A stretch of DNA of 64,000 nucleotides from Candidatus Thorarchaeota archaeon (GTDB taxonomy: Archaea; Asgardarchaeota; Thorarchaeia; Thorarchaeales; Thorarchaeaceae): positions 83,285 through 147,284 of the forward strand of contig SDNP01000002.1 of the NCBI GenBank assembly GCA_004524445.1, in the 5' to 3' direction. Positions within the stretch are counted from its first letter, which is position 1, and each line of letters starts with the position of its first letter. Below are positions 1,701-20,782 of the stretch, in pieces. Below the pieces are notes generated by a model, which ran no database searches, was not told the DNA's origin, and saw only the letters and a program-made list of their open reading frames with translations. The position numbers and the translations under genes were made by a program.

Positions 1701-2177
1701 ATTCACTTTATCAACACGGTTTCACAGTCACTATCTGTGAATGGCGCCATTTTTGTGAATATAATATGGCATAAGAACCCCATTTGTCTTTTTTTCATAA
1801 TAGCAGCCCTCATAACTCCGTTCATACATGTGAATAAAGACACCCCTTCGTTTCCACTGGAGATTAGTAATTAGAGATATGAATAACACTAGACCGTATT
1901 CACAAGGGTAATAACCATGTGAATAGCACTTAAATTGGAGAAATATCCTTAAAACACCAAATAAGAGTTATGAGCGCTTTATATTTTTAAATAATATCAA
2001 AGAGGGGCAAAAATCTTCTAAATAATAGTTTAGAAGCTAATAAAGCTGTATCAGGTAATATCTTGACCTTATGTGTATATAGTGGATTCACATACTCACA
2101 CTTATTTGGATTCTAACGCTTCCAAATGTGAATCGGGTGCGCAGTACCCTTGGGTTTGAGTACCGATCATGGTGAAT
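1701..2177. repeat. Dispersed TGTGAAT/ATTCACA heptamer array in an AT-rich intergenic region
   Basis: Exact copies at 1736, 1754, 1829, 1898, 1918, 2086 and 2127. One-mismatch copies at 1701, 1720, 1878, 2072, 2094 and 2171. Confidence 0.8.
1841..1862 (-). promoter_or_regulatory. Origin recognition box (ORB) with G-string
   Basis: Reverse complement CTCCAGTGGAAACGAAGGGGTG matches the archaeal ORB consensus TCCAGTGGAAAC-AAAGGGG. Confidence 0.85.
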
Positions 2178-5575: not shown

Positions 5576-5591
5576 GAGAACATGTGTTCTA
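5576..5591. promoter_or_regulatory. Degenerate copy of the 16-bp palindrome (GAGAACATGTGTTCTA) upstream of the Cas2-like gene
   Basis: 14/16 identical to TAGAACACGTGTTCTA and 17 bp upstream of the TTG start at 5609. Confidence 0.65.
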
Positions 5592-5608: not shown

Positions 5609-5899
5609 TTGGCATATTTGTACATCTATGATTGTGTTGCGGCCAGAGAGAGCAACGCCAGAAGAGTGTCCTTCACAAAGGAGCTCTACGGATTCACCTA
5701 TTCCTGGAAGACCAAATCAGGTATGAAGACGAAAAGAAAGATTGGACTCATTGAGGAGTGTATGGGAGCTGAGCCAGTCACAGACTCTGCCATTCTAGTC
5801 CCCGATAGCTGCAAGGATCAATTTGACGAACTCTTTGTATATTATCGGGATATACTAAAAATCAAAATCTTCAAAGTGGAGTCAGAAGTATATTTGTAA
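5609..5899 (+). CDS. Small Cas2/VapD-like ferredoxin-fold protein adjacent to the putative origin
   Basis: YLYIYD beta strand, RRVSFTKELYG helix and a later DSAILVP strand resemble the Cas2 layout (YD...RR..K.L..YG...QxSVF). 96 aa. Confidence 0.5.
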   Translation: MAYLYIYDCVAARESNARRVSFTKELYGFTYSWKTKSGMKTKRKIGLIEECMGAEPVTDSAILVPDSCKDQFDELFVYYRDILKIKIFKVESEVYL

Positions 5900-5927
5900 T
5901 ACAAATAATACATTTTTGTAGGAACAA

Positions 5928-5943
5928 TAGAACACGTGTTCTA
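5928..5943. promoter_or_regulatory. Perfect 16-bp palindrome TAGAACACGTGTTCTA (left of origin)
   Basis: Read directly and identical to 6142-6157. Confidence 0.8.
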
Positions 5944-5953
5944 AATCTAACCA

Positions 5954-5976
5954 GACCCCATTATTTCCAGTGGAAG
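5954..5976 (-). promoter_or_regulatory. ORB element
   Basis: Reverse complement CTTCCACTGGAAATAATGGGGTC. Confidence 0.85.
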
Positions 5977-6097
5977 ACAATATAAATTACAAAGAAGATA
6001 ATTAGTAAAGTATAAATAGTAGTATATGTACCCCGATATTATCTCCATTTCTATATATATCATACAACGGGTTCCTGGATCCTCATCCATTTCTATA

Positions 6098-6120
6098 CTT
6101 CCAGTGGAAACGAGGGGGTA
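6098..6120 (+). promoter_or_regulatory. ORB element
   Basis: CTTCCAGTGGAAACGAGGGGGTA, near-consensus with G-string. Confidence 0.9.
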
Positions 6121-6141
6121 TATTAGCCAGCGAATATTAAC

Positions 6142-6157
6142 TAGAACACGTGTTCTA
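6142..6157. promoter_or_regulatory. Perfect 16-bp palindrome TAGAACACGTGTTCTA (right of origin)
   Basis: Read directly and identical to 5928-5943. Confidence 0.8.
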
Positions 6158-6242
6158 AGTACTATTCCAGTACCACAACACTGATAGACGATATGAGTGT
6201 CGCTGAAATTGTTGGCATGATATGCCTTTGGAGAATTAGGTC

Positions 6243-8138
6243 ATGACAAAACCGAAGGACTTGTTGGAAGATAATCCTGGTAAGAGTATTCTATTATTGG
6301 CAAACGAAGCCATTGCAAGGGGAACTCTTGAGGCTGGAGTTAGACTAGTCGCATTGTATCCTGGGACGCCCAGTAGTGAAATTGGAAATAATCTCACCTT
6401 CATGGCGCCACATATCCCGAACTTCTACTTTGAATTCAGCACGAACGAAAAGGTGGCTATGGAGGTTGCTGGTTCTGCTGCAGTAGCCGGGGTTCGCTCA
6501 ATGATGGTCTGCAAGGGACCGGGTCTCAATGTAGCAGCAGACCCGTTTTTCTCCTTGGCCTATGTTGGTGTCCGAGGGGGAATGGTTATCGTTGTTGCAG
6601 ACGACCCCAGTATGTGGAGTTCACAGAATGAAAATGACAGTCGGTATTATGCACTGATGGGTAATATGCCCATGATGGAACCCTCAGATCCTGCAGAGGC
6701 AAAATCAATGCTTCTTGAAGCCTACAAATTTTCAGAGAGTCTAGAGCTTCCGGTATTATTTAGGACCACAACTCGTGTAAATCATACTCGTGCCCCTGTA
6801 GTATTGGGGCCCATTGAGGATCGGCCAGATAAAGTGGAATTCGAAAAAGAACCAACTCGATTTGTTCCAGTTCCCTCTGTTGCACGACAACGTCATCCCT
6901 GGTTGTTGAAACAAATAGACGCCGCAAGAGAATTGTCGGAACAAAGCGAACTGAATTTCGCCGTCGGCGAGGGTGACCTCGGAATCATTACTAGCGGGGT
7001 CTCGTACAATTATGTAATGGAATCACTTACCCGACTAAATACTAAAGCAGAAATTCTCAAACTTGGCATTACTCATCCTGTACCCGAACGGAAGATCATC
7101 GAGTTTCTGAAGCGCCATGAGAGCGTTGCTGTGGTGGAAGAGTTAGAACCCTTCATCGAGACTCATGCTCGTCGACTGTCTAATCTACATGACCTATCCA
7201 ATGTTGAAATTCTAGGAAAGGAACAAGGATACTTCCCAAGAGTGTATGAATACACTCCCAAAATAGTTACCGAAGGACTAGCAAAAATACTAGACAAAGA
7301 ATTACCCGTAGATTGGAAGCATTTAGATACACTCAGCGAAGAGATTCCTGATCTCCCTCCGCGACCACCTCTGTTGTGTGCCGGCTGTCCGCACCGAGCG
7401 TCATATTTTGCTATCAGAACCGCCACTCGCGGAAAAGCAATCTATCCATCTGACATAGGATGCTATACACTTAGCATTGCACCACCATTAGAAACCGCCG
7501 ACATATTGTTTGACATGGGGTCTTCTATCAGCACAGCATGTGGATTATCTCAAGTGACTGGACAAGAAGTTGTTGCGAGTATTGGAGATAGTACTTTCTT
7601 TGCTTCAGGTCTGCCTGGCATCGTCAATGCCGTATATAATGGCCATCCGATTAGCCTAGTAGTCCTTGATAACCGAACGACAGCCATGACTGGTCATCAA
7701 CCACACCCGGGGACAGGAGTCACCGGTATGCAGGAGAAGGTTGAACCACTAGACATTGAAGGAGTCTGCAAGGGACTGGGTGTCAAATACACCAAAACAG
7801 TGGACCCCTTTGAGCCACTTGCCGATCTTGTGGCTGAAGTACGTAAAATGGTTGAATGGGTCAGGGAGAATAAGGCACCGGCTGTCCTAGTATCCAAAGC
7901 ACCATGTGCTTTACTCACGGCTGCAGAACGACGTCGAACCCAAGAGCAACCAGAGCCATACTTTGTGGATTCGGAGATGTGTACAGGATGCAAACGATGT
8001 CTCAACAGATTTGCCTGTCCTGCTATGTATTGGGACTCAGAAACAGAGAAGGCTGCCATTGATGAAACACTCTGTAATCTATGTGGGAGTTGTGTATCTG
8101 TCTGTCCTCAAGGGGCCATAGTACAGAAGGAGGAATGA
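6243..8138 (+). CDS. iorA: Indolepyruvate ferredoxin oxidoreductase alpha subunit
   Basis: NEAIARG, YPGTPSSEI, NEKVAME, SSQNEND, RPPLLCAGCPHR, SDIGCY and GDSTF motifs, plus two C-terminal CxxCxxC ferredoxin motifs. Confidence 0.93.
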   Translation: MTKPKDLLEDNPGKSILLLANEAIARGTLEAGVRLVALYPGTPSSEIGNNLTFMAPHIPNFYFEFSTNEKVAMEVAGSAAVAGVRSMMVCKGPGLNVAADPFFSLAYVGVRGGMVIVVADDPSMWSSQNENDSRYYALMGNMPMMEPSDPAEAKSMLLEAYKFSESLELPVLFRTTTRVNHTRAPVVLGPIEDRPDKVEFEKEPTRFVPVPSVARQRHPWLLKQIDAARELSEQSELNFAVGEGDLGIITSGVSYNYVMESLTRLNTKAEILKLGITHPVPERKIIEFLKRHESVAVVEELEPFIETHARRLSNLHDLSNVEILGKEQGYFPRVYEYTPKIVTEGLAKILDKELPVDWKHLDTLSEEIPDLPPRPPLLCAGCPHRASYFAIRTATRGKAIYPSDIGCYTLSIAPPLETADILFDMGSSISTACGLSQVTGQEVVASIGDSTFFASGLPGIVNAVYNGHPISLVVLDNRTTAMTGHQPHPGTGVTGMQEKVEPLDIEGVCKGLGVKYTKTVDPFEPLADLVAEVRKMVEWVRENKAPAVLVSKAPCALLTAAERRRTQEQPEPYFVDSEMCTGCKRCLNRFACPAMYWDSETEKAAIDETLCNLCGSCVSVCPQGAIVQKEE

Positions 8139-8141
8139 AAA

Positions 8142-8753
8142 ATGAGTGGTAATACTAGTAATACAGACACTGTTGATATTGTAATCTCTGGCGTTGGAGG
8201 ACAGGGAGTCTTGACCCTGGCAGAAATCTTGGCGAAGGCAGCACTAGCCGAGTCCAAAAATGTTAGAGTTGGAGAAATACATGGGATGGCTCAACGTGGG
8301 GGTCACGTCATCTGTACAGTTCGTATCGGACCTGATGTAAGTGGACCTATTGTTGATCCCGGTACAGCAGACATCTTAGTTGGTTTCGAACCAATTGAAA
8401 CGCTGCGAGAGATAGAAAGCATAAGTAAGGACGGCAAAGTACTCATGAACTCAAATGTCCTTCATCCCGTAGCAGTATCAATGGGCAAAGCTGAATATCC
8501 AAAACATGCTGACATTGTAGAATCGATTAAACCATTCACCAAGAATCTCATACAATTTAATGCAATGAACCTTGCAAAGGAAGCGGGTAGTGATAGGGCA
8601 ATGAATATGGTCATGTTTGGTGCAGTCATTGCACTTAACCTCACAGGCATATCAACAAACACAGCAAAGAAGACCATTAGAAACACATTCCCCGGGCGCT
8701 ATGAGGACATCAACATCCGCGCTTTCGAATCTGGAATGAAGCAAATCAATTAA
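8142..8753 (+). CDS. iorB: Indolepyruvate ferredoxin oxidoreductase beta subunit
   Basis: GVGGQG and EIHGMAQRGG motifs; follows iorA. Confidence 0.92.
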   Translation: MSGNTSNTDTVDIVISGVGGQGVLTLAEILAKAALAESKNVRVGEIHGMAQRGGHVICTVRIGPDVSGPIVDPGTADILVGFEPIETLREIESISKDGKVLMNSNVLHPVAVSMGKAEYPKHADIVESIKPFTKNLIQFNAMNLAKEAGSDRAMNMVMFGAVIALNLTGISTNTAKKTIRNTFPGRYEDINIRAFESGMKQIN

Positions 8754-8804
8754 TAGCACCAAACATCTGTTCAGGACCAGATAATTTTTGTATTATTTGT
8801 AATA

Positions 8805-11171
8805 CTATCTTGTAAGTCTGCTTGCTGCAACTGCCACTTGCCCAACTGAAATACCACCATCTCCAGGGGGAATTGAGTCTTGAAGGAGAGGCTCAAGCCC
8901 ATGACGATTCAATTCGGCTATTATTGCTCTTGTGATAATTCTATTCAAGGCAACTCCACCAGAAAATCCAACCTGTCGTATGCCATGATTATCAGCCGCT
9001 TGAGCTGCAATTCTGGCAAGCCCCCTTCCTACTGCTTGTTGTACTGCCATGGCCAGGTGTGATCTCTTTTCTCCTTGTTCTTTCATTTCAAGGAGTCGAA
9101 GAAGAAGATGCTCTGTGTCAAGCTGAGGACTTCCATTTGGTGATACTATATGTGGCTCAATTGATAGCTTTGTTGGCACAGCAACTGCTTCCAGTTTCAT
9201 TGGACACTCCCCATCATAGCTATTCTGGAAACATACTCCAAGAGCAAATGCAGCTGCATCTAGCACACGACCGGTACTGCTACTCTCAATCGTGTTTATA
9301 TTTTTGTCAAGGGCAATGAGCATCTGCTCGAAGGATTCCTCATTCATGCATATATCAGCTGCAACTTCTACATCTCGGACGTACCCAAACAACTCCTCTC
9401 TGCTTAACGAACCTCCTACGATTCCCATAAACGGTCGTGCCGCATATTTTGCTGATAGATCTCCACCAACATACAACTGAGGAGTCAAACCTCCAAACTT
9501 GGAGAAATGCCTCCCATTCCCAACTAGGACTTCTCCTCCCCATGCTTCGCCATTAGGCCCGTAGCCATAACCATCGGCTGTAATACAGATAATACTTGTA
9601 TCAGTCGTTAGTTTGTTATCAACTAGGATGGAAGCCAAATGAGCATGGTGATGCTGAACTTGGACCAAGGGAATATCCTTCTCTTGGGAGATGCGCCTTG
9701 CAAGATCAGTACTGAGAAACTCAGGATGTAAATCACAAGCAATACCATCAAGTTTCTCGACGCCAATGAGACTCATCAGATGTTGATACGCATCCCTAAG
9801 AAATTGAATATTCTCTAATTGGTCCGTATCACCAATGTATTGAGTAGGATATATGCTAGTTGCCTTCAGAATTGACGCGGTAGCTTTTTCTTCTGGACCC
9901 GTAGCAACAAGATTAAGACCATCACCAGGATAAGAAATTGGAATTGGTTCTGGCACATAACCTCTCGATCGTCTTATGAAGACAGAATTTTCATTAGTTA
10001 CGTACTTGATTACAGAATCATCAGCTCTTTGCCATATTCTTCTATCATGTACCAAGAAGTAGTCTGCAATCCCAGAGAGGTCTTTTCGCATTTTCTTTGG
10101 ATCGATGTACATCGGTATGCCAGTAGGGTTGGCACTTGTCAAAACAATGGCAGGTTCATCCATATAATGAAAGAGGAGATGATGAGAAGGAGCGTAGGGG
10201 AGCATAACACCTACGGTGTCCAGTCCGGGAGCTATGCTATCCAATGAATCTCGTGGTATTATATTCAACGCATTTTGTGACTCTCTTTTTCTAACAAGGA
10301 CAATAGGACGTCTCCACGAAAGAAGATCGTCTAATTCGTTCTCCGACGGATTGAAAGCAGACTCAACAATTGACTTGTTTCTGGCCATAATTGCGAACGG
10401 CCGCTGCTCTCTCATCTTCAATAAACGAAGTCTATTGATTGGCCTCGAGTTTCTAACCGCAGTGGCTAGATGAGTACCGGATATGCCTTGTACTGCCACG
10501 ATTGACCCCGACTCTATTAGCTCTGCCGCACTTTTCACTGCATTTTCTTTGGCAATATTGTTGCCCCTATCATTGAAAAGCTGGTATGTAGGACCACACT
10601 CCTCACATGCTGTTGTCTGTGCATGATATCTTCTATCCAACGGGTCTGTATAACCGGTATTACAAGTATTACATAACGGAAAATCAACCATGGTTGTGTG
10701 AGGTCTATCGTATGGAAGATCAGTGATAGTAGAGTATCTTGGTCCGCAAGCTGCACACGAAATGAATGGATAGAGATACCATCTCGATTGAGGATCGAAT
10801 AGCTCTTCAACACAAGTGTCACAGATCGAAATGTCGGGTGGAATCACTGGTTCCGCGTTACCAGTTTTTTTTGCAGAGGATTTGATTATGGAAAAATCGT
10901 CGAATGAGTTCTGCTTTGGCAACCATTCTGTGTCCAGTTGTTCAATTCTTGAAATGGATGGAGGGTTCTCTTTCAACTCATTAAGCAAAGACTTGATTCT
11001 TGTCTTCTTTCCTTCGACAACAATCTCAACACCTGCATCTCCTAGATTCAAAACATATCCTTTCAAGGATAGTCCCTTTGCCACTCGATATACAAATGGT
11101 CTAAATCCCACACCTTGTACAATTCCATTGATGTGGATTTTAGCTCTGACACTCAGTTTATGAAACCTCAC
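8805..11171 (-). CDS. hypF: Hydrogenase maturation carbamoyltransferase HypF
   Basis: Acylphosphatase GIVQGVGFRPFVY, two zinc fingers, RRSRGY, VQHHHAH and GDGGISVGQ. Confidence 0.95.
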   Translation of the reverse strand: MRFHKLSVRAKIHINGIVQGVGFRPFVYRVAKGLSLKGYVLNLGDAGVEIVVEGKKTRIKSLLNELKENPPSISRIEQLDTEWLPKQNSFDDFSIIKSSAKKTGNAEPVIPPDISICDTCVEELFDPQSRWYLYPFISCAACGPRYSTITDLPYDRPHTTMVDFPLCNTCNTGYTDPLDRRYHAQTTACEECGPTYQLFNDRGNNIAKENAVKSAAELIESGSIVAVQGISGTHLATAVRNSRPINRLRLLKMREQRPFAIMARNKSIVESAFNPSENELDDLLSWRRPIVLVRKRESQNALNIIPRDSLDSIAPGLDTVGVMLPYAPSHHLLFHYMDEPAIVLTSANPTGIPMYIDPKKMRKDLSGIADYFLVHDRRIWQRADDSVIKYVTNENSVFIRRSRGYVPEPIPISYPGDGLNLVATGPEEKATASILKATSIYPTQYIGDTDQLENIQFLRDAYQHLMSLIGVEKLDGIACDLHPEFLSTDLARRISQEKDIPLVQVQHHHAHLASILVDNKLTTDTSIICITADGYGYGPNGEAWGGEVLVGNGRHFSKFGGLTPQLYVGGDLSAKYAARPFMGIVGGSLSREELFGYVRDVEVAADICMNEESFEQMLIALDKNINTIESSSTGRVLDAAAFALGVCFQNSYDGECPMKLEAVAVPTKLSIEPHIVSPNGSPQLDTEHLLLRLLEMKEQGEKRSHLAMAVQQAVGRGLARIAAQAADNHGIRQVGFSGGVALNRIITRAIIAELNRHGLEPLLQDSIPPGDGGISVGQVAVAASRLTR

Positions 11172-11314
11172 TGTTCTGAATTCGTGTTATCGATATTAAT
11201 ACCATGAAGTGGCAAATAATCTCTGTATCGATATAATTGTATTACAAGTATTACAATTAGCAATCGACACTCACAGGTAGGTTTTCTTAAGGCATGGCAC
11301 ATACCCAATTGTGA

Positions 11315-11737
11315 ATGACATTGACTTCCTCAAGGACACCTCATCCGAAACCGGGGAGAGAACCCATAGCTACCCCCTCAATCCTCGCAAACATTCCCGA
11401 CTGTCTTCGGCAAATACTTGTCGAGGCCGCTGATAACTCAAAGAAGAGAAAGAAATCAATTCTGATATCTAGTAATAGTTTGGCTAATAGATTCATTCTA
11501 GAACGATGGGGAATACGACCATCTCAGCGCAGGAAATTCAGAAATCTATTTTCACAAATTCGCAAACACTGTAGGAAGATATTCGATCATCTTCTCAATA
11601 GGAAAAGAATGGAATTCGATATGAATTTGAATCGTTATTTGTTTGGAATCTACAAGTTCGATGAAATCCGCGGAAACACAATCCTTGCTTTTGTACAAGT
11701 TCCTGAGAGAGAAGGATGGACACTTCCCTGCAAGTAA
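11315..11737 (+). CDS. Hypothetical basic protein (140 aa)
   Basis: ATG-started and Arg/Lys-rich, fills the gap divergent from hypF, and is flanked on both sides by 9-bp tandem arrays. Confidence 0.6.
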   Translation: MTLTSSRTPHPKPGREPIATPSILANIPDCLRQILVEAADNSKKRKKSILISSNSLANRFILERWGIRPSQRRKFRNLFSQIRKHCRKIFDHLLNRKRMEFDMNLNRYLFGIYKFDEIRGNTILAFVQVPEREGWTLPCK

Positions 11738-11914
11738 TATGTGTAATACAGTGAAACCTAAGCAAAATCTTTATCCACTATTCGGCGTATACAAAAACGT
11801 ATCCGTAGAGAGTAACAGAAAACCGATTTGACAAAGTCCTCTCATAACTCTTTAAAATAGAAAATAGAGGATTATGAGCCCTTTTCAAAAAACCTCGTTC
11901 TCTCCAAAAATCAG

Positions 11915-12463
11915 GTGGAGATTATGACTCAAGGCACCAACGACGTGAATTTCGAGAAGATAAGGAAGGCTTCCCAGGGCACCAAGAGAGTGCTAAGGGA
12001 ACCAATCATGAAGTCATTACTACAAAATTCCCTCCTCACGGAAACGCAACTAGAAACGCTCCTAATTGATTTGCTTGTCGAAGACAATTTCGGTAAGCAC
12101 ATTCCGTATGATACGAAGGCCTCACTGCGTACAACTGAAAATGGCAAGGGTGTTTCTAGAGGAGCATTCAATAGGACACTTCAACAAGCTCGCGAAAATA
12201 TTACAAAAAGCATCTACACCATGCTTCTGTTAGGATACCTTGGTCTATTTGAAATTGCCATATTTCGGCCATTTGAAGAAGTTGCAGCCAAGATAGGCGA
12301 CTATAGACATATCAGGGAGGTATTGGCAGGAAGAGAAAAGTTAACAGAAGAGGATCTTGAGAGTCATAGGGCCGCAGAAGAAACAATCATTTCTGCACTC
12401 CATGAGCTGGCATCGCCACTGAATCTTAAAACTGAACTATCAAAAGAGACTGGATCTGAATAG
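11915..12463 (+). CDS. Archaeal hypothetical protein with HTH-like segment
   Basis: SLLTETQLETL...GVSRGAFNRTLQQARENI resembles a sigma-region-4/LuxR-like HTH and is followed by a hydrophobic helix. Start may be ATG 11924. Confidence 0.65.
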   Translation: MEIMTQGTNDVNFEKIRKASQGTKRVLREPIMKSLLQNSLLTETQLETLLIDLLVEDNFGKHIPYDTKASLRTTENGKGVSRGAFNRTLQQARENITKSIYTMLLLGYLGLFEIAIFRPFEEVAAKIGDYRHIREVLAGREKLTEEDLESHRAAEETIISALHELASPLNLKTELSKETGSE

Positions 12464-12929
12464 AGTCTCCGTGCAAGCTTCTTCCGTATTATTCCAGGAA
12501 TCAATGATTGCGAAGTAAAAAAATTGGCACGAATGTGTCGTGTTTTATGACTGAACTCGTAAGCGACGAGTAGTTCCGCACAGTCCTACCTACACTGTAT
12601 CTACTTGGAGGTATATTTGTATGAGGAGATAGAGATAGCAATGCAAGTTGAGATCTGTGACTTATGAAACAAACCTCGAAACCAGCATTCAATCATTACT
12701 CCACAACACACTCACTCTATATAGGAATACATTGATACATAGTTCTAATCATAGAACAAGCATTTTTGGCACTATTATTCGTATTTTTAATAGTAATAAA
12801 TTATTTACAGAAAAATTTGCACGAATCATATTATTATTTGTAATACAAATAATACGTCACCCCCTCATTTTGAAAAGTAATCTTGTTTTAATACAAAATG
12901 AACACATGAACAGTGGTAGTGAATAGAGA

Positions 12930-14144
12930 TTGGATTACAGTAAGGCACGAAAACGATTACGGGAACAAGTGAGGAAGAAAATCCAGCAGCTATCGGAAAT
13001 CGAGCTCAGTAAAGCAATAACTAATGCCATTGGCGAGAGGCGGATTAGGGATTTAATTGATTATCTTATTGGTATTGAATTAGAGGAGGGTTGGAACCAA
13101 TCTCTAGACTATTTGGGGGATTCACTAAATCGAGAGTATGAAATCCCTCCACTGACCGGAAGGAAGACAAGAAGAATGGAACCCCTCAAATTTCGGGAAG
13201 TCCTTTTTTCTATCTTCGATTGCCAAGGGCTAGAAGCAATCAATATAGACACCATGACCATAATCTCAAAACTCCATAATGCACAATCAATCACAAATGC
13301 AGAGATATTCTTTAAAGAAATAGTTAATGAAAAACTTCAGTGTCATTTGAAGGATTCCAACCTTCTCTTCATTAATATCGATGGTGTGAAATCTTACCTT
13401 GACACCAACCTGATAAATCAGATCCATGAAAAGATGGAGGAAAACCTGTTGTCAGTTTCACTGAAGAGCAATTCCGAGTCGGTTGACATATCACCATTAT
13501 GGTACACAGAGTATGGTCGGACAGCTCTGTGCAGACTTGGGATACAGGGAAGCCATATCGACAAACAAACACTCGACATGGTATTATCCGTATTACCAGT
13601 ATCACAAACTGTTCGGGGCAATATTACTAATAATATGCATGCAAGACGCCTGAATCCTCCCCTGAATGATGAATATCAATCTCTGCTTAGAGCAATGATT
13701 GAGCAAGATATTATGACTCTTGCAAAACTTGGTAGTCGAAATGCGATTCCTCTCATGAACTACTTGCTTGAAGAATCTGTTGACACTTTTAATTCAGAAT
13801 ACACCTCCCAAAAATATTCCAAAATAGCAGAGCAGTTATCCAATCATTTGTTTATCCGGTCAATCGATTCTATCCTGTCGTTTGAAAAGATGACAAGGGC
13901 CGATGATCATCGCATCTCAAGTCTAGCAATTATTGCTCTAGGCAACTACTACCACGAATCCGCAGTTATCATCTTGGCAGAAATACTGTGCAGAACAAAA
14001 AACAGTGATCTTGTAAACTACGCATCACAATCACTTAGACGGATCAAGAGCAAATTTCCTGAAACCAAACCTATACTCAAGAAATTGATGGATACTATGC
14101 ACAATAATTGCAAGCCGCTCAGACAATTTTTGGAGAGTTACTAA
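12930..14144 (+). CDS. Hypothetical alpha-helical protein with C-terminal HEAT-like repeats
   Basis: 404-aa ORF with HEAT-like pattern ISSLAIIALGNY...AVIILAEIL...VNYASQSLRRI. Confidence 0.6.
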   Translation: MDYSKARKRLREQVRKKIQQLSEIELSKAITNAIGERRIRDLIDYLIGIELEEGWNQSLDYLGDSLNREYEIPPLTGRKTRRMEPLKFREVLFSIFDCQGLEAINIDTMTIISKLHNAQSITNAEIFFKEIVNEKLQCHLKDSNLLFINIDGVKSYLDTNLINQIHEKMEENLLSVSLKSNSESVDISPLWYTEYGRTALCRLGIQGSHIDKQTLDMVLSVLPVSQTVRGNITNNMHARRLNPPLNDEYQSLLRAMIEQDIMTLAKLGSRNAIPLMNYLLEESVDTFNSEYTSQKYSKIAEQLSNHLFIRSIDSILSFEKMTRADDHRISSLAIIALGNYYHESAVIILAEILCRTKNSDLVNYASQSLRRIKSKFPETKPILKKLMDTMHNNCKPLRQFLESY

Positions 14145-14231
14145 CCAACTCAACACAGAAATCATGTATTATATGTAATACAAAGCTAAATCACAACAGA
14201 ATTAAAACTGTAGTGGTAGTGAACCAGTCCC

Positions 14232-15620
14232 ATGAGCGGTACATTAGATTCCAATGCAATGCAGATTGGCAAATTTTTCAATCCAAATAGTGTTGCCTTG
14301 GTCGGAGCTTCGGCTGATTATAGAAAACTGGGAAATTCAATTCTCATGAACTTACTTGCGTCAGAGGTAGAAGTATATCCTGTCACTCGAAGTAGAACCC
14401 AGGTTCTGGGAGTAAAGGCATATCCCAGTCTCATAGATTTGCCGAAGAGAGTTGATCTCGTTATCATTGCAGTTGCCGCCAAATATTGTCCCAATCTGAT
14501 GCAAGATGTAAGGCAGGCAGGTGCTCACCATGCTGTGATAATCTCTGGAGGTTTCAGTGAAACTGGTGATGAAGGAGCTAAACTGGAAGAGCTTCTTGTG
14601 GAAGAAGCCAAGAAGAATGAAGTACGGATTATTGGTCCAAATTGCGTTGGGGTTTCCAACAGTCGTTTATTCAATGGCACATTTACGATGATGCCCGAAA
14701 GAGGTAATATCGCCTTAATTTCGCAAAGTGGTGCTCTTGGTGGAATGCTGATATACACGACACGGTCGAAACGAATAGGGATGAGTAAGTTCGCAAGTAT
14801 TGGAAATGCAGCTGATGTTGAATTTACCGAGCTACTCGATTATTTCAGTAAGGACCCAAAGACATCTGTTATCGCTGTCTATATTGAGGGTGTCGAACAT
14901 GGCCGTGCACTTTACGAGTCATTAAGAACTGCATCGCGGAAAAAACCCGTAGTGGTTCTTAAGGGTGGAAAAAGCAAAGCGGGAAGCAAAGCAACGCTGA
15001 GCCACACAGGGTCTCTTGCCGGGTCACCTCGATTGTTTGATGGGATGATTAAACAAGCAGGTTGTGTTTGTGCACCCACCTTTGACTCGTTCTTGGAAGT
15101 CTGCAAGTTATTTGACTATCAGCCTCTGCCACAAGGTCGTAATATTGGTATTATCAGTAATACAGGGGGTGCCGCAGTCTTAGCAACTGACGCTGCATCC
15201 GCATTGGGGCTCAAGATACCTACACTTGAAGAATCCACAATGAAAGAAATGAGACAAGCAATGTCACCAATGGCATCCGTTGAAAATCCTGTTGATGTTG
15301 TGGCAAGCGGGGGTAGAAGAGAATACAAACTGGCAACAAAGTTAATGCTGGAAGATAACCATGTTGACATGCTATTGGTAATCTGTGGAGTCCCAACTTT
15401 TGCGGGAATGACTCAGACAGAGCATGCTGCTGGTACGTTGGAGGGAATTAGGACTGCAAATAACAACAAACCCGTTGTTGGTGTTTGGCTTTCAGGAGAT
15501 GTGGGTAAACCTGGAAAGGATCTACTTGAGATGAATCGAATTCCTTGTTATGACGATCCTTCACTGGCGGCGTTATGCATGGAACGAGTTGCTTCATATT
15601 CACTTCATGAACAGAGGTAG
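14232..15620 (+). CDS. acdA: Acyl/acetyl-CoA synthetase (ADP-forming) alpha subunit
   Basis: FFNPNSVALVGAS, IIGPNCVG, SQSGALG, SHTGSLAG (phospho-His) and ENPVD. Confidence 0.9.
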   Translation: MSGTLDSNAMQIGKFFNPNSVALVGASADYRKLGNSILMNLLASEVEVYPVTRSRTQVLGVKAYPSLIDLPKRVDLVIIAVAAKYCPNLMQDVRQAGAHHAVIISGGFSETGDEGAKLEELLVEEAKKNEVRIIGPNCVGVSNSRLFNGTFTMMPERGNIALISQSGALGGMLIYTTRSKRIGMSKFASIGNAADVEFTELLDYFSKDPKTSVIAVYIEGVEHGRALYESLRTASRKKPVVVLKGGKSKAGSKATLSHTGSLAGSPRLFDGMIKQAGCVCAPTFDSFLEVCKLFDYQPLPQGRNIGIISNTGGAAVLATDAASALGLKIPTLEESTMKEMRQAMSPMASVENPVDVVASGGRREYKLATKLMLEDNHVDMLLVICGVPTFAGMTQTEHAAGTLEGIRTANNNKPVVGVWLSGDVGKPGKDLLEMNRIPCYDDPSLAALCMERVASYSLHEQR

Positions 15621-15647
15621 ATATGTTTCTGTAATACAATTATTACC

Positions 15648-15938
15648 TTAGCTTTCAAGATGAACTCCAGCGATATTTGGAAATTCTTCCTGAACTGCAT
15701 CTCTCAGCTTGCGTTCTACCCACATGCTCAGATTAATTGCCCGTTCTGTTCTTACAGCCTGGAGGCAGGACCTCAGGTCTGTACTAACGCTAAAAGACAT
15801 GATTGGACTATTCCTTTCTTTATTTGGAACGGCTACACTTTCTTGTTGCTTAGCTTCTGCAGTGGTTTCAATTTCTTCCTCTGTTGTATCCTTGTCGCGT
15901 TTCTCCTCTTCTTTCCTATATTTTCCTAAGAGACTCAA
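15648..15938 (-). CDS. Ribbon-helix-helix DNA-binding protein with charged disordered N-terminal tail (SegB/ParG-like architecture)
   Basis: Beta strand IMSFSVS, helix TDLRSCLQAVRTE, turn AINLS and helix MWVERKLRDAVQEE. The TTG start abuts the upstream stop and is preceded by GGAGGT. Confidence 0.7.
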   Translation of the reverse strand: MSLLGKYRKEEEKRDKDTTEEEIETTAEAKQQESVAVPNKERNSPIMSFSVSTDLRSCLQAVRTERAINLSMWVERKLRDAVQEEFPNIAGVHLES

Positions 15939-16913
15939 CTATCTTACCTCCTTCAATATACTTGCATACGCCTCTGAAACCAATCTGGCAATTTCCACAT
16001 TTATTTCAGGGCTACCACTCTCCCGAAGGTTTTCAGCTGCAACCTGCTGGCACCCTCGAGCCAGCATACGAATATCCCGTGGATTTCCTCCTGCAGCATC
16101 ATTGATCACCTCAATTGCTTCTTCATGGAATGGATAAACATCAAAATCTGTAGGATCAAAGCTATCGATTTCCCCTTTAGCATACGCTATTCTTCTGCCA
16201 ATGAATTCTTTCGCTTTGCCGTCTTCGAGCTTCGGAATGTCCAACGGTTCTGTCCTATCAGCTATTTGAGGGAGAAAATTAAGCATTGCATTCCAATACT
16301 CTGCAGTTCCACTCATCACGAGTGTAACTATTGGTTCATCCAAGGTTCTGGGATACTCATCTTTCATTTCTTCCGTAGGAAGATCGGCAAGGTATCTGAG
16401 TTTGTGAAAGGCAGCCTCTTGATTATCTGCAACATCCTCGATGAAAAGAGCAGTTCTACTCTGTTCCTCTATGTAGCGACGTACACACTCCTTTGCAACC
16501 GCCTCTATAATTTGAGAAGACTCCCAAGAGCGTCTATACTTGATTCTCAACGAGTCGGCAATGGCAGCAGCCATTTGTTTCTCATATAGACCAGTCATTC
16601 CAACGTACCCTGTGACAAATTTATTTCCCCTTCTATCGGCCAATGTGGGAAGGTCTCTCAATGCCAATAACATTAGAGTACTCTTTCCCGAACCTACAGG
16701 GCCTCTAAGGAAAATATGACGTTCATTGGTTATTATTAGATCCACAATACTATCAAGAAAATCAGGGTGCTCCACATAGAGCCTCGAGTCCGGCATTTTG
16801 AATCCTCGAAATGGTGAGAATCTTGCGCCTATCTTCTCCTCCCACGCTCGAAGTGTTTCTTTTCGAGTATTGAAATGACGAATCAATGCGGATTCGTGAA
16901 CTGCAATTGTCAT
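15939..16913 (-). CDS. AAA+ ATPase of ExeA/TnsC-like (AAA_22) type
   Basis: Walker A GPVGSGKST, variant Walker B LFIED, sensor-I LVMSGT, arginine finger IADR and sensor-II GNPRDI. N-terminal SPF motif as in ExeA-like proteins. Confidence 0.85.
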   Translation of the reverse strand: MTIAVHESALIRHFNTRKETLRAWEEKIGARFSPFRGFKMPDSRLYVEHPDFLDSIVDLIITNERHIFLRGPVGSGKSTLMLLALRDLPTLADRRGNKFVTGYVGMTGLYEKQMAAAIADSLRIKYRRSWESSQIIEAVAKECVRRYIEEQSRTALFIEDVADNQEAAFHKLRYLADLPTEEMKDEYPRTLDEPIVTLVMSGTAEYWNAMLNFLPQIADRTEPLDIPKLEDGKAKEFIGRRIAYAKGEIDSFDPTDFDVYPFHEEAIEVINDAAGGNPRDIRMLARGCQQVAAENLRESGSPEINVEIARLVSEAYASILKEVR

Positions 16914-17106
16914 TGTTTCAATTCCTTTGTATCACAAGTAGTGTTTGTATTACAATATTTCGATGGCTTTTCCTACATAAATATTGCGAGAGAAGTCAGC
17001 TTCTGTATCATGGTCGTTTCCATACGGAACCTTTTTGAGCAACTACAAACTGCCAGAGAGCTAGCAGAGATAGAAACCTGTTTCTAACCTCTGGGAGGAA
17101 TAAGAA

Positions 17107-17385
17107 GTGAATCTAGATAGAATTCGACGAGTCCTTAATTCAATGATGATTTTTACTTTCCTAATTTTTGGAGCGCTCGTTGGGATAATATTCCTCTTAG
17201 ATACTCCTCTCACTAAATCCGTTGCCGCTCTCCCGTTCGCCTTTCTGTTTATATCTGCAATGACTCTCATCACAACCGGTCAGATTAAAGAGAAACCAAA
17301 GGCCGCAATGAAATATGTACAAGAGTGGCTTGCCATATGCATATTTGTCGTACTAATTGCAGCCGCAGTTTATCTCGTTTCCTAA
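17107..17385 (+). CDS. Small membrane protein (3 predicted TM helices)
   Basis: Three hydrophobic stretches. GGAGG lies upstream of the GTG start. Divergent from the AAA+/RHH operon. Confidence 0.7.
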   Translation: MNLDRIRRVLNSMMIFTFLIFGALVGIIFLLDTPLTKSVAALPFAFLFISAMTLITTGQIKEKPKAAMKYVQEWLAICIFVVLIAAAVYLVS

Positions 17386-17458
17386 TACAATAGTTTTAGC
17401 ACTTCATCTACCTCAACGATTTGCCTCAGCAACTAGTCAGTTATACAAAGAGAGAACT

Positions 17459-18096
17459 ATGAGTAAAATCCTGCCTGGAACAAAGACCACAAGGATGTAA
17501 TTACTTCGAATTAAGAACAGGAAAGAGCTTGGAGAACGAGGTCATAATCTGCTAAAAGAAAAGCGTGATGCATTGATTATGGAATTCTTCAATACCACAG
17601 CCGAAATAAAAAAGGCAAGACAGGGTGTGGAAGCTGCTCTCTTAGAAGCCTACTCTGACTTAACACAAGCCAAGATGATGATGGGCCCAGCTCGAGTAAA
17701 AGCATTCATCTATGCAAGCATGATGAAGAACAGGTTGAATATCAAAACCAGATTGCTTATGGGTGTTCGAGTACCTGTCTTGTCAGTTGAATAGGAAATA
17801 CCTGAATTGCCCATGCTTTAGCTGGCTCCAGTACCAAACTTGATATTATGGCTAAAAGATTCCAAGAGGCTTTGATTGCCATATTGGGACTAGCTGAAAT
17901 TGAATGGACCCTGAAGCGACTAGCACTTGAGATTGAACGAACTAAGCGACGAGTATCTGCTCTGGAAACCATTGTTTTACCTCGCTTGGAAGCAACCGCA
18001 CGGTTTGTCAGGCTGGCATTAGAGGATCGGGAAAGAGAAGAATCCATTCGCCTTAAGATAATCAGAAACCGGATGCAAGAAGAGAAGTCTGCTTAG
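17459..18096 (+). pseudogene. atpD: A/V-type ATP synthase subunit D pseudogene
   Basis: MSKILPGTKTTRM*LLRIK...RGHNLLKEKRDAL...MGVRVP...*...EIERTKRRVSALE. In-frame TAA at 17498-17500, TAG at 17792-17794 and a frameshift before 17848. Confidence 0.88.
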
Positions 18097-18470
18097 CTCT
18101 TTCTCAATTTCAATATTGCAGCGGCTAAATCGCCTTTTGTTTCTTCAAGAGTTTGCTTTGCCGTTTGAATATCTGTTCCAGTCTGTTCAGCAACCAGTGC
18201 TGCATCTTCCATGGGTATCTCAACTTTCTTCTCTTCAATCGGAGCTGCCTTGCCACCCTTTGTAATATCTCTCTCAGTTTTGGATCCGCTGATTTGATAG
18301 GACTCATTGCCAGCTTGTTTCACAAGCGCTACTTGTGGGTCTTCTATCACCCATTCCTTGTCAGCAAATCGAATGATCACTTCATTTACTCCATCAATGT
18401 CTTTTTGTTCTATGCCCATCTTCTTCATCATTCTAGCAAGTTGCTTAGGTGACAGTCCTCTGAAACCCAT
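18093..18470 (-). CDS. nac: Nascent polypeptide-associated complex protein
   Basis: LSPKQLARMMKKMGI...VNEVII and C-terminal UBA ...GDLAAAIL. Start trimmed to ATG 18470 (18485 also possible). Confidence 0.9.
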   Translation of the reverse strand: MGFRGLSPKQLARMMKKMGIEQKDIDGVNEVIIRFADKEWVIEDPQVALVKQAGNESYQISGSKTERDITKGGKAAPIEEKKVEIPMEDAALVAEQTGTDIQTAKQTLEETKGDLAAAILKLRKS

Positions 18471-18546
18471 TGTTTTTTTCCTCATGATATATTCGTGTTT
18501 ACATACTACACTAGGTTCAATTCTATCAAACGATAAAACAATTACG

Positions 18547-19392
18547 TTATCTGTTAGAATCAAGGTTGATATCAAAGACCATATGACTAACGCCCGGTGA
18601 ATACTTCTTAATCGGTCTGGAAGAAATTTTGGCCATGAATCCATATTCTGAAGATTCAGTAATAATTGTATTACGGATTTTCCTCTCATCATTTCCATGT
18701 ACTAAGCTGTGCATATGGATAATCCCGCCCCGGAATCGTAATCCATTCAACGCATGTGGCAAATAATCAACTGTATCATGTAGATATCCCATCACAATTC
18801 TATCCGCATCCCTAAATGTCACATCTCTGCAGTCTCCTAATACTGCCGTCATATTCTCATGAACCTCATTCATTCTGATGTTCTGACATAGGAAATCGTA
18901 TGCCAAGTCATTAATATCAATGGCCAAGACATTTGCCCCTGAATGAAAAGCTATTGGCAATGAAAACTGGCCGACACAAGCAAACATGTCAACAACATGC
19001 TCATCTGAACTAACCTGCTGAGAGAGAAAAATTCTCTCATTCACATTGCCTCGAGAAAATGTAATTCGCATCGGATTGAGTTTGAATTCTATCCCGTTCT
19101 CGGTATGAGTTGTTGTTGTGTTCTTACTACCAGCCACTAGTTTGTAGTTCGGAATTCGTTTTTGACCACGTGTTGGCCCCATTCTTACTCCAACGGATTT
19201 GGATCTAGACTCAAATTCTAATGTGAGCTCTCCAATAACATCTGCCAAAGGTAGTAGATCGGGGTGAATACTCAATAGCACCACGTGACCGATTAATTGA
19301 TACCCCTTGGGAAGCTTAGCAGGGTCCTCTATAGAATTGCCAATCGCATTCACTAAGAAATCATAATATTTCATGCTCTCAACTTCAATCAA
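18547..19392 (-). CDS. taw2: Trm5/Tyw2-family SAM-dependent tRNA-modifying enzyme (Taw2-like)
   Basis: YQLIGHV, HTENG, FSRGNVNER, VVDMFACVGQFS and ADRIVMGY. Confidence 0.75.
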   Translation of the reverse strand: MIEVESMKYYDFLVNAIGNSIEDPAKLPKGYQLIGHVVLLSIHPDLLPLADVIGELTLEFESRSKSVGVRMGPTRGQKRIPNYKLVAGSKNTTTTHTENGIEFKLNPMRITFSRGNVNERIFLSQQVSSDEHVVDMFACVGQFSLPIAFHSGANVLAIDINDLAYDFLCQNIRMNEVHENMTAVLGDCRDVTFRDADRIVMGYLHDTVDYLPHALNGLRFRGGIIHMHSLVHGNDERKIRNTIITESSEYGFMAKISSRPIKKYSPGVSHMVFDINLDSNR

Positions 19393-19410
19393 GGAAAACG
19401 ATTGCTGATT

Positions 19411-20622
19411 TTAGCCGTACATATGCGATTTAATCTCGTTAGCTCTTCCTCTATTCCTGACTTTCTCTATGGCCATTCTAAAGTCAGTCTGAGTGACATA
19501 TCCGCGTTCAGCTCGAATTGCAAACATACCTGCTTCAGTGACAATTGCCTTCAAATCAGCTCCAGTAGTTCCCCGAGTCGCTGAAACAAGCTGATTATAA
19601 TCGACATCAGAATCTACAGTTAGTGGCCTAGTATGAATCTTGAAGATTTCTTTTCGACCCTTTTCATCAGGTTTTGGAAAGTCTATGATTCTGTCGAATC
19701 TCCCAGGACGGAGCAAAGCCGGATCCAAAATGTCGGGTCTATTTGTGGCACCCAAAATTGCAACTTGACCTCGACTTTCAAATCCATCTAATTCGCTCAG
19801 AAGCTGCATCAAGGTTCTCTGAACCTCTCGGTCTCCAGATGTTGCTATGTCCAGCCTTTGTGAACCTACAGCATCGAGCTCATCAATAAACACTATTGCT
19901 GGAGATTTCTCTTTGGCCAACATGAATATCTCTCGCACCAAACGAGCACCTTCTCCAATGAACTTCTGAACAAGTTCCGATCCAATGACACGAATAAATG
20001 TCGCATTTGTCTGATGCGCAACTGCTCTCGCACTCAATGTCTTGCCTGTTCCTGGCGGGCCTGTAAGTAAGACACCTCTGGGAGGCTCAATTCCAATTTG
20101 TTCAAACAACTCGGGTTTCAGCAGGGGATACTCGACAGTTTCTTGTATCTCTCTGAGCTGCTCCTCTAGGCCACCAATATCTACATATGACACTTGAGGT
20201 TTCTCTTCAATCTCCATCGCACGAATGAGTGGATCTCTCGAAGGAGGGAGTTCTTGTGTTACTGCAAACGATCTTTGATTGAGGGCAACACGCGTTCCAG
20301 ATTGTAACTTCTCACTCGATATAGAAGATGAAACATGAACAACAAAATTTGGTCCAGTTGAGCTTTTCACTATTGCTCGACCATCTTCAAGCATTTCGAC
20401 AATGGTAGCCGTAATCAATGGCGATTGTCTTAGCTTCTCCAGTTCTGTCCTAAGAGTTTGAGTCTCCTTCTCAAGCCTACTACATTCGGCGTGGAGGATT
20501 TGCTTCTCTGTTTCCAGTGCTCTAAGACGTCTCTCCAAATGTCGAGCATAGCTCTGTGAATATGAAGAGTCCTCGACGCCACCATCTTCTTTTGCATCAG
20601 TACTACCTGGCAATCGATGCAC
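19411..20622 (-). CDS. pan: Proteasome-activating nucleotidase
   Basis: Coiled coil, [30 protein letters not shown] and C-terminal HbYX (MYG). Confidence 0.95.
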
Positions 20623-20782
20623 CTCGACCTCACTTTCTATAGTATCGATTTAAGGATATCCTTAACGTTCACCATTTTTTGTATCAGGGTTTCAATTCTC
20701 TACATAATGTTATTTTCACATTCCATTTTCGTAATACCAGTATTACAATACAGGGGAGAAATGTTTTACAAAAGGAATGAGA

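Follow-up and report, generated by a model that had tools for sequence, protein, structure and literature searches.

A candidate origin-proximal partition or origin-organising system with an ExeA-like AAA+ ATPase in Asgard archaea

We analysed a 64,000-nucleotide stretch of a Candidatus Thorarchaeota archaeon genome (assembly GCA_004524445.1, contig SDNP01000002.1, positions 83,285 to 147,284; hereafter the window) and focus on a gene within it that encodes a compact AAA+ ATPase. This gene forms an operon with a gene for a small ribbon-helix-helix (RHH)-like protein, and the operon is enclosed by a field of short repeat arrays that occurs once in the genome and starts at the candidate replication origin (Table 1). 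On the strength of this layout and of analogy to characterized systems, we propose that the ATPase serves as the NTPase in a system that lies near the origin and partitions the chromosome or organises the origin region, with an AAA+ protein standing in place of ParA, a proposal that we regard as evenly poised between right and wrong. The sections below describe the repeat field, the operon, the ATPase and its distribution, and then weigh the proposal against its alternatives.

A repeat field unique in the genome begins at the candidate origin

The tandem GTAWTAC-NN-GTAWTAC occurs at 18 sites in the window when up to two mismatches are allowed, compared with 0.47 sites expected from shuffled sequences. 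At a tolerance of one mismatch, all 16 tandem sites of the 2.79-Mb genome fall within C33:89180-104015, which corresponds to window positions 5896-20746. This field begins at oriC, spans approximately 15 kb and encloses the ATPase operon. Exact GTAWTAC heptamers reach a density of 1.27 per kb within the field, against 0.076 per kb genome-wide, and nine control palindromes of the same composition returned 0-17 sites across the genome and never more than one per 15 kb.

Clustering of GTAWTAC on the ATPase contig recurs in eight other genomes, seven from the same family (f1, Thor; other genera plus one congener) and one from family f27. Within f1, the fraction of genome-wide sites that lie near the operon is 14/14 (G143), 8/9 (G242), 12/12 (G075), 17/18 (G005), 10/12 (G103), 13/14 (G027) and 9/10 (G046). 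The f27 genome (G238) has 11 of its 12 sites near the operon, packed into 3.5 kb between the promoter and a point just past the gene for p182, a conserved neighbouring protein. A candidate operator of three phased units lies directly upstream of the ATPase start codon in the window, and the same arrangement is found at the ATPase promoter in G242 and in f27. Families f2 and f7 carry a GTAWTAC pair with an 11-bp period about 90-100 bp upstream of the ATPase gene, and f21 has GTAWTAC-like units with wider spacing in the upstream region.

Family f19 has a different word, GATATC-N6-7-GATATC, for which 8/9, 4/4 and 3/3 of the genome-wide sites surround the operon and oriC. The 9-bp GTAWTAC tandem is not clustered in G112 (f2) or in the f19 genome G038, and the GATATC tandem is not clustered in G043 (f12) and has a single site, inside the ATPase gene, in G006 (f7). 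The predicted RHH strand of the partner protein differs between these word groups (SFSVS and SATVS as opposed to NFNVRMP), while the conserved segment of p182 is unchanged. Because the RHH strand varies with the word and the p182 segment stays constant, we favour the RHH-like protein as the reader of the arrays. The first-pass annotation of this locus had suggested, in one of its two readings, that the RHH protein supplies the DNA specificity. Three results fit this idea: the operon is conserved, an operator lies at the promoter of the operon, and the array words vary between lineages.

Frey-type f7 genomes additionally contain GTTAACA clusters of 9 and 14 copies beside the origin recognition boxes (ORBs) upstream of the ATPase gene (L035:11834-13198 and L038:13001-13323), and GTTAACA may be the array word of that family.

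The operon is linked to candidate replication origins across families

The ORBs of the candidate origin carry G-strings and are flanked by a 16-bp palindrome, TAGAACACGTGTTCTA, at positions 5928 and 6142. The contig reaches its maximum of cumulative GC skew at the ORB pair, and the long ORB pattern has four matches in the genome, all on the window's contig. Two canonical cdc6 genes lie 24 kb and 64 kb from the candidate origin, and neither adjoins it.

The operon lies 0.9-10 kb from an ORB cluster in f1, f2, f3, f7, f19 and f21. Distances are 9.6 kb in G242 (f1), 7 kb in both G112 (f2) and G053 (f21), approximately 1 kb in G006 and G076 (f7), 2.2 kb in G038 (f19) and 3.6 kb in f12, and two Odin-type genomes (f3) have the operon 5.3-5.5 kb from ORBs that are the only two matches in the genome. 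In f27, the nearest ORB lies 16.5 kb away in G262, and the ATPase contig of G238, which ends 8 kb past the operon, yielded no ORB.

The ATPase is encoded with a small RHH-like protein

The first-pass annotation had described the ATPase as a stand-alone protein, which holds in so far as no domain is fused to it; the gene nonetheless heads a conserved operon, in which the TAG stop of the ATPase gene abuts the TTG start of the 96-amino-acid open reading frame (ORF). The ATPase-RHH operon is kept at every orthologous locus with enough flanking sequence. The predicted partner begins with a conserved N-terminal peptide, MSLLGKYRK, in which L4, K6, Y7 and R8 are invariant, continues through a variable, charged, low-complexity linker and ends in a strand-helix-helix pattern that terminates in EFP.IA. 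The Pfam RHH_1 profile matches two of 21 orthologues (best E 6.2e-5). No Pfam, NCBIfam or PHROG family matches the partner protein from the window itself, and a profile of the family found nothing significant among PDB sequences.

A complex prediction for the ATPase and the RHH-like protein scored 0.00, which counts neither for nor against an interaction. Metatranscriptome libraries contain pieces of the operon, including one contig that spans the ATPase/RHH junction; with coverage partial and DNA carry-over possible, these pieces are only a weak hint of expression, and no significance attaches to the parts without coverage.

Two loci depart from the standard arrangement. A metagenomic orthologue with 41% identity (L008:477-686 and 683-1579) has a classical RHH gene of 66-69 amino acids upstream of the ATPase gene and overlapping its start, so that the gene order is reversed. 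At one f6 locus, an RHH-like gene has no ATPase gene nearby.

The ATPase belongs to the initiator-type AAA+ group and is ExeA-like in sequence

The ATPase ORF is genuine, and over 100 full-length homologues are 76-98% identical to its product. Alignments with ORC1, a bacterial ExeA-type protein and orthologues served to locate the motifs, and the whole set read in the first-pass annotation (GPVGSGKST, FIED, SGT, IADR and GNPR) is present in the 324-residue translation. The Walker A motif GPVGSGKST (residues 72-80, read from the translation) is of the classical type and lacks the extra lysine of ParA-type proteins. Walker B reads ALFIED (155-160), with E159 and D160 aligned under the D-E of ORC1 and ExeA. 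Sensor 1 is SGT (201-203), T203 falling under the ORC1 sensor 1; the arginine finger R220, in IADR, aligns with the S-R-L arginine finger of ORC1; and R279 of the sensor 2 motif GNPR aligns with the GDAR sensor 2 of ORC1. G74, G76, K77, D160, G202, T203, R220 and R279 are invariant among orthologues. An N-terminal G(F/L/W)-x3-PF motif is also present, its conserved G29 and F35 aligning with FGFEIPPF of the bacterial protein.

The order of the acidic residues in Walker B varies by lineage, with ED in Thor, f2 and f27, DD in Frey-type families, and DE retained in Odin-, Hod- and f21-type orthologues and in bacterial ExeA. The ED form is a derived state of the Thor/f2/f27 clade.

Sequence profiles place the family near ExeA. 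The window protein matches Pfam AAA_22 only below threshold (24.2 bits against a 27-bit cut-off), while its orthologues exceed the cut-off at 34-53 bits, and NCBIfam TIGR03015 (ExeA-like PEP-CTERM ATPase) gives a weak match (E 2e-5, residues 62-285). An hhalign comparison of the family with a bacterial protein that combines AAA_22 and PG_binding_1 domains returned a probability of 98.5% (E 2.8e-15, 254 columns, including the N-terminal G-x-x-x-x-PF motif), as opposed to 11.6% for an Asgard Cdc6. With TIGR02928, the Orc1/Cdc6 profile, the protein scores 14 bits (cut-off 181; E 0.017). In a profile search of the PDB, the family matches ORC1 best (residues 63-301, E 1.5e-7).

The predicted fold points to Cdc6/Orc1, TnsC and MuB. 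An AF2 model of the ATPase (pLDDT 91, pTM 0.85) recovered Cdc6/Orc1 as the best Foldseek matches, followed by ShCAST TnsC and MuB, at E values of 3e-10 to 1e-7 (Aeropyrum ORC2 at 3e-10; TMt 0.63-0.70 for TnsC and MuB). VIA alignments gave Z 18.6-19.4 for Cdc6/Orc1 proteins (Cdc6 19.4, with a root-mean-square deviation of 3.0 over 251 residues; Sso Cdc6/Orc1 18.7), 17.6 for ShCAST TnsC, 17.3 for MuB and about 15 for generic AAA+ proteins. Two helices lie between strand 2 and the Walker B strand of the model, as for the initiator-specific motif, an assignment made on secondary structure alone. The model and all orthologues stop after the lid helices (residue 324 in the window protein), whereas Cdc6/Orc1 chains go on into a winged helix.

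Because of the hhalign values and the end of the chain at the lid, we assign the ATPase, on sequence and model, to an ExeA-like branch of the initiator-type AAA+ group that is neither an ExeA/GspA orthologue nor Orc1/Cdc6. The ExeA/TnsC/Orc-like placement of the first-pass annotation and its missing C-terminal winged helix are thus borne out, the former by sequence profiles for ExeA and by fold for Cdc6/Orc1, TnsC and MuB. Its further observation that transposon and secretion genes are absent extends from the window to the relatives, and none of the orthologues examined sits in a secretion or transposon context. No peptidoglycan-binding domain, ExeB/GspB partner or secretion gene was found in the ATPase or its neighbourhood, in the window or in the examined orthologues, although source annotations name some orthologues 'ExeA family protein' or 'type II secretory pathway predicted ATPase ExeA'. 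The protein has no membrane segment, and PADLOC and PHROGs searches with it returned nothing significant.

One distant relative (P0135, L044:5355-6455, 30% identity) has a C-terminal extension that looks winged-helix-like by sequence alone, which would give it an Orc1/Cdc6-like architecture; it lies on a short contig. The contigs of P0135 and of a second distant relative, P0133, are too short for gene context.

The ATPase is a core gene of several Asgard families

A census of sampled genomes per family (threshold E ≤ 1e-5; f12 by profile) identified the ATPase as a single-copy gene in 69 of 76 genomes of f1. Orthologues are found in seven further families: f2, f27 (8/11 genomes), f19 (5/6), f7 (5/5), f3 (4/4), f21 (3/3) and f12, in which the protein is longer (434 amino acids). 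Identity to the window protein is 69% in the sister family f2 and 46-48% in f27. According to source labels, f27 corresponds to Heimdall/Gerd-archaeota, f3 to Odinarchaeia and f12 to Hodarchaeota, and the f7/f19-type orthologue cluster P0127 is labelled Freyarchaeota. At the same threshold the ATPase was not found in f9 (68 genomes), f5 (28) or f22 (21). A search of 1.84 billion cluster representatives turned up no more than a handful of full-length clusters that are related.

Between two genera, the ATPase shares 81.8% identity, compared with 78.8% for the proteasome ATPase PAN, 75% for an acyl-CoA synthetase and 57% for HypF. The ATPase is encoded by a vertically inherited, syntenic core gene, and its conservation exceeds that of PAN.

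A ParA-ParB pair stands in the corresponding slot of family f13

Genomes of family f13 yielded no AAA+/RHH pair. In its place, between the ORBs and the p182 gene and on the strand of the latter, they encode a genuine ParA (AAA_31, E 5e-55) and ParB (ParB_N plus HTH_ParB). The two loci are L042:8152-9751 and L039:6885-8478, the second with a TnpB-like insertion between ParB and p182. ParB_N is present in 26/28 genomes of f5 and 3/3 of f13, both families without the AAA+ pair, and in 0-1 genomes each of f2, f3, f7, f12, f19 and f27 and 8/76 of f1, all of which have it.

Proposed function and comparison with known systems

The arrangement resembles that of type Ib partition cassettes, such as ParF-ParG of TP228 and delta-omega of pSM19035, and of the archaeal SegA-SegB/segS system (PMC8682754, PMC12139799, PMC12284271), in which an NTPase gene precedes one for a small DNA-binding protein with a flexible N-terminal tail and short repeated sites lie at the promoter and nearby. 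Both elements of this layout are present here: an NTPase gene and a small tailed RHH gene share one operon, and repeated sites cluster beside the operon and at its promoter. The chromosomal, origin-proximal location is that of bacterial parABS. The putative system described here differs in its NTPase, which carries no deviant Walker A motif (KGGxGK[ST]) on a SIMIBI fold and is an ExeA/Orc-type AAA+ protein instead, in arrays that are spread over 15 kb and are often intragenic, and in its conserved third protein, p182.

The ATPase aligns with ExeA/GspA (COG3267, AAA_22, TIGR03015) at the N-terminal G(F/W)...PF motif, the P-loop, the (D/E)(E/D)..N Walker B region and the G.PR sensor 2, but differs in having no peptidoglycan-binding domain, ExeB/GspB or secretion genes, in the ED order of the Thor clade, and in a context of oriC, RHH gene and arrays. 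Archaeal Orc1/Cdc6 provides the solved folds on which the AAA+ base and lid superpose best, with sensor 1, arginine finger and sensor 2 aligned and ORBs near in both cases; the ATPase departs from it in lacking the winged helix and in failing to match the Asgard Cdc6 profile, and canonical Cdc6 is encoded elsewhere in the genome. A third parallel is provided by TnsC and MuB, compact AAA+ proteins without a DNA-binding domain of their own that coat DNA and are released by the terminal peptide of a partner, which triggers ATP hydrolysis. We propose the same mechanism for the ATPase, which unlike TnsC and MuB is a single-copy, vertically inherited core gene without transposase, TniQ or transposon ends.

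A role in partition or origin organisation ranks first because of the type Ib-like layout at oriC and the TnsC/MuB precedent for a compact AAA+ protein. In the mechanism that we envisage, RHH dimers would bind the phased GTAWTAC arrays cooperatively, both at the operator of the operon's promoter, giving autoregulation, and at 13 further arrays over the 15 kb from the edge of oriC. The ATP-bound ATPase would oligomerise on DNA through the trans-acting arginine finger R220, in the manner of Orc/Cdc6, TnsC and MuB, and contact with the basic N-terminal peptide of the RHH-like protein would lead to hydrolysis or disassembly. The ED Walker B suggests that hydrolysis may be slow and switch-like, and p182, as a conserved third component, could be an adaptor or a second DNA binder. 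The resulting switch or ratchet would position or compact the origin region.

A broader proposal would be that an ORC/ExeA-like AAA+ protein and a tailed RHH centromere-binding protein acting on origin-flanking arrays constitute a further class of DNA segregation system beside ParA, ParM and TubZ, present in several Asgard lineages that include Hodarchaeales-labelled genomes and interchangeable in position with ParAB. We advance this tentatively and think it somewhat more apt to fail than to hold.

Several points weigh against a partition role. We know of no AAA+ protein that drives partition, the known types being ParA, ParM, TubZ and StbA. The RHH fold of the partner is one that we infer from a sequence pattern and two weak Pfam matches in orthologues, and p182 and the Thor-only protein p140 are candidate readers of the arrays alongside it, which qualifies the assignment of DNA specificity to the RHH-like protein. 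Half of the arrays (7/14) lie within coding sequence. In k-mer scans, no multi-site field was found in f2, f3, f7, f12 or f21, some of which have promoter-proximal units only, and in families without a field the ancestral role could be purely regulatory. The shared slot and the complementary distribution of ParB come from few, related, sampled genomes and form a pattern and not a statistic; f21 has both systems (ParB_N in 2/3 genomes), and both are mostly missing from the large families f9 and f22. Proximity to the origin suits a role in replication equally well.

Alternative explanations

The first-pass annotation had offered two possibilities, a DNA-coating partition motor and a cofactor of initiation or helicase loading, and the context favours the former through the genome-unique field at oriC and the ParA-ParB pair found in the same slot in f13. 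The latter survives as an origin regulator, a reading that we consider unlikely, in which a winged-helix-less ORC-like ATPase is brought to the flanks of oriC by the RHH-like protein or p182 and controls initiation without moving DNA. The ATPase might, for example, sequester or titrate Cdc6 or MCM, assist helicase loading or silence the origin. This reading would account for Cdc6/Orc1 as the top structural matches and ORC1 as the top PDB profile match, for the persistence of ORB linkage across families, for an array field that abuts oriC and extends to one side of it, and for an oriC whose cdc6 genes lie at a distance. It fits less well with a sequence that is ExeA-like and not Cdc6-like in the hhalign comparison, with the canonical Cdc6 genes of the same genome, with a 15-kb field whose 14 arrays lie mostly in genes and are unlike known initiator sites, and with f13, in which the pair is replaced by ParAB and not by an initiator.

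We think it rather improbable that the operon is an autoregulated transcription module, with the RHH-like protein acting, like aCcr1 or CdrS, to repress transcription or regulate the cell cycle, the ATPase as its co-regulator and the arrays as operators of local genes. The GTATTA core of the repeat coincides with the seed of the aCcr1 box (AGTATTA), to which an RHH cell-cycle regulator of Sulfolobales binds (PMC9976892), and sites are found at the promoter of the operon in all families examined, several of which have promoter-proximal sites only. Against such a module stand the seven intragenic arrays and two intergenic ones that lie between convergent 3' ends and not at promoters, the confinement of sites to one region with no dispersed regulon, and the consideration that a plain repressor needs no oligomerising AAA+ partner better conserved than PAN. 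A secretion-assembly ATPase of the ExeA/GspA type, or an ATPase of a mobile element, defence system or toxin-antitoxin system, is highly improbable for a single-copy, vertical and syntenic gene whose product has no peptidoglycan-binding or membrane segment, no secretion, transposase or integrase neighbour in any family and no significant PADLOC or PHROGs match, despite its sequence kinship with ExeA-type proteins, the ExeA names of some orthologues and the presence of TnsC and MuB among its best fold matches.

If the preferred partition reading is correct and the AAA+ protein is a motor or switch, the ATPase would represent a new class of NTPase for partition systems, and an ORC-type module would handle chromosomes or origin-flanking chromatin, as distinct from initiation, in the closest archaeal relatives of eukaryotes. 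The literature on Asgard segregation and origins that we consulted, comprising work on SegAB in Sulfolobales and a study of the Asgard replisome, does not describe this gene set, and no Asgard segregation system is described in the reviews and SegAB papers searched. The gene set provides a concrete candidate that can be tested: it comprises three proteins, its DNA word and origin are defined, and natural variants carry a different word. Under the rival readings too, it marks a replication origin and an unusual repeat field inside housekeeping genes.

Neighbouring genes and other features of the origin region

p182 accompanies the ATPase/RHH pair in all families. Its gene lies immediately upstream and within the same operon in genomes of the Odin type, immediately downstream in those of the Frey type and a few kb away elsewhere. 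p182 is also tied to ORBs across Asgard families and is ORB-linked without the ATPase in f13 and f6. Its model (pLDDT 82) is helical and has no significant Foldseek match in the PDB; the best VIA-align hit (Z 7.3) covers a helical hairpin only. The remaining leads are weak, namely rows for cyclin C and TFIIB and a cluster in the Atlas of which Sigma70_r4 makes up 14% (score 0.78). Atlas look-alikes of p182 include Bathyarchaeota-labelled clusters (score 0.94), and the family may reach beyond Asgard archaea. An in-frame TAG suspected in the Odin p182 gene was dismissed, since it lies upstream of the coding part.

Table 1. Coordinates of the operon, repeat field, candidate origin and neighbouring genes in the window (ORF, open reading frame; aa, amino acids)
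Feature	Position	Strand	Description	Basis
AAA+ ATPase gene	15939..16913	-	324 aa, ATG start	Translation, alignments, AF2 model
RHH-like partner gene	15648..15938	-	96 aa, TTG start directly after the ATPase TAG stop	ORF and orthologue comparison
Candidate operator	16929..16953	.	Units GTATCAC / GTAGTGT / GTATTAC, 9-bp phased, 16-40 bp upstream of the ATPase ATG	
GTAWTAC array field	5896..20746	.	14 tandem arrays of 2-3 units, 9-bp period	
Array starts	5896, 8149, 8790, 9580, 10648, 11239, 11734, 12840, 13581, 14166, 15139, 15631, 18659, 20731			
oriC candidate	5928..6157	.	Inverted ORBs at 5956-5975 (-) and 6099-6118 (+) around an AT-rich core	
p182 gene	11915..12463	+	All-helical product, no known family; invariant segment GV(S/T)(R/K)GAF.R.L.QA..N	
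p140 gene	11315..11737	+	Basic product, 140 aa, Thor family only	

One array lies about 60 bp upstream of the p140 gene and another over its stop codon, and the membership of p140 in the system is uncertain. Housekeeping genes that contain arrays are located at 8142-8753, 8805-11171 (hypF), 12930-14144, 14232-15620 and 18547-19392, and hypF holds two arrays, one of them over its CxxC region. Synteny between HypF and p182 is kept in f1, f2, f7, f12, f19 and f27. A link to hydrogenase maturation through HypF was dropped as the primary reading, as f3 and f21 lack this synteny and HypF is merely another origin-proximal gene.

The palindrome that flanks the ORBs has 13 sites in the genome when up to two mismatches are allowed, a number that led us to reject it as an origin-specific element; three of these sites bracket the ORB pair (5576-5591, 5928-5943 and 6142-6157). 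Similar palindromes flank ORBs in f1, f2, f7, f19 and f21, and the palindrome is probably recognised by another conserved DNA-binding protein, separate from this system.

Of the two cdc6 genes, one (orc1/cdc6, C33:25003-26118) has an ORB with a G-string directly upstream, at C33:24859 and 64 kb from the ORB pair, and the other lies at C33:64365-65456. An additional ORB is found at window positions 1843-1862. The ORBs at C33:24859 and 1843-1862 may reflect a second origin or autoregulation of cdc6.

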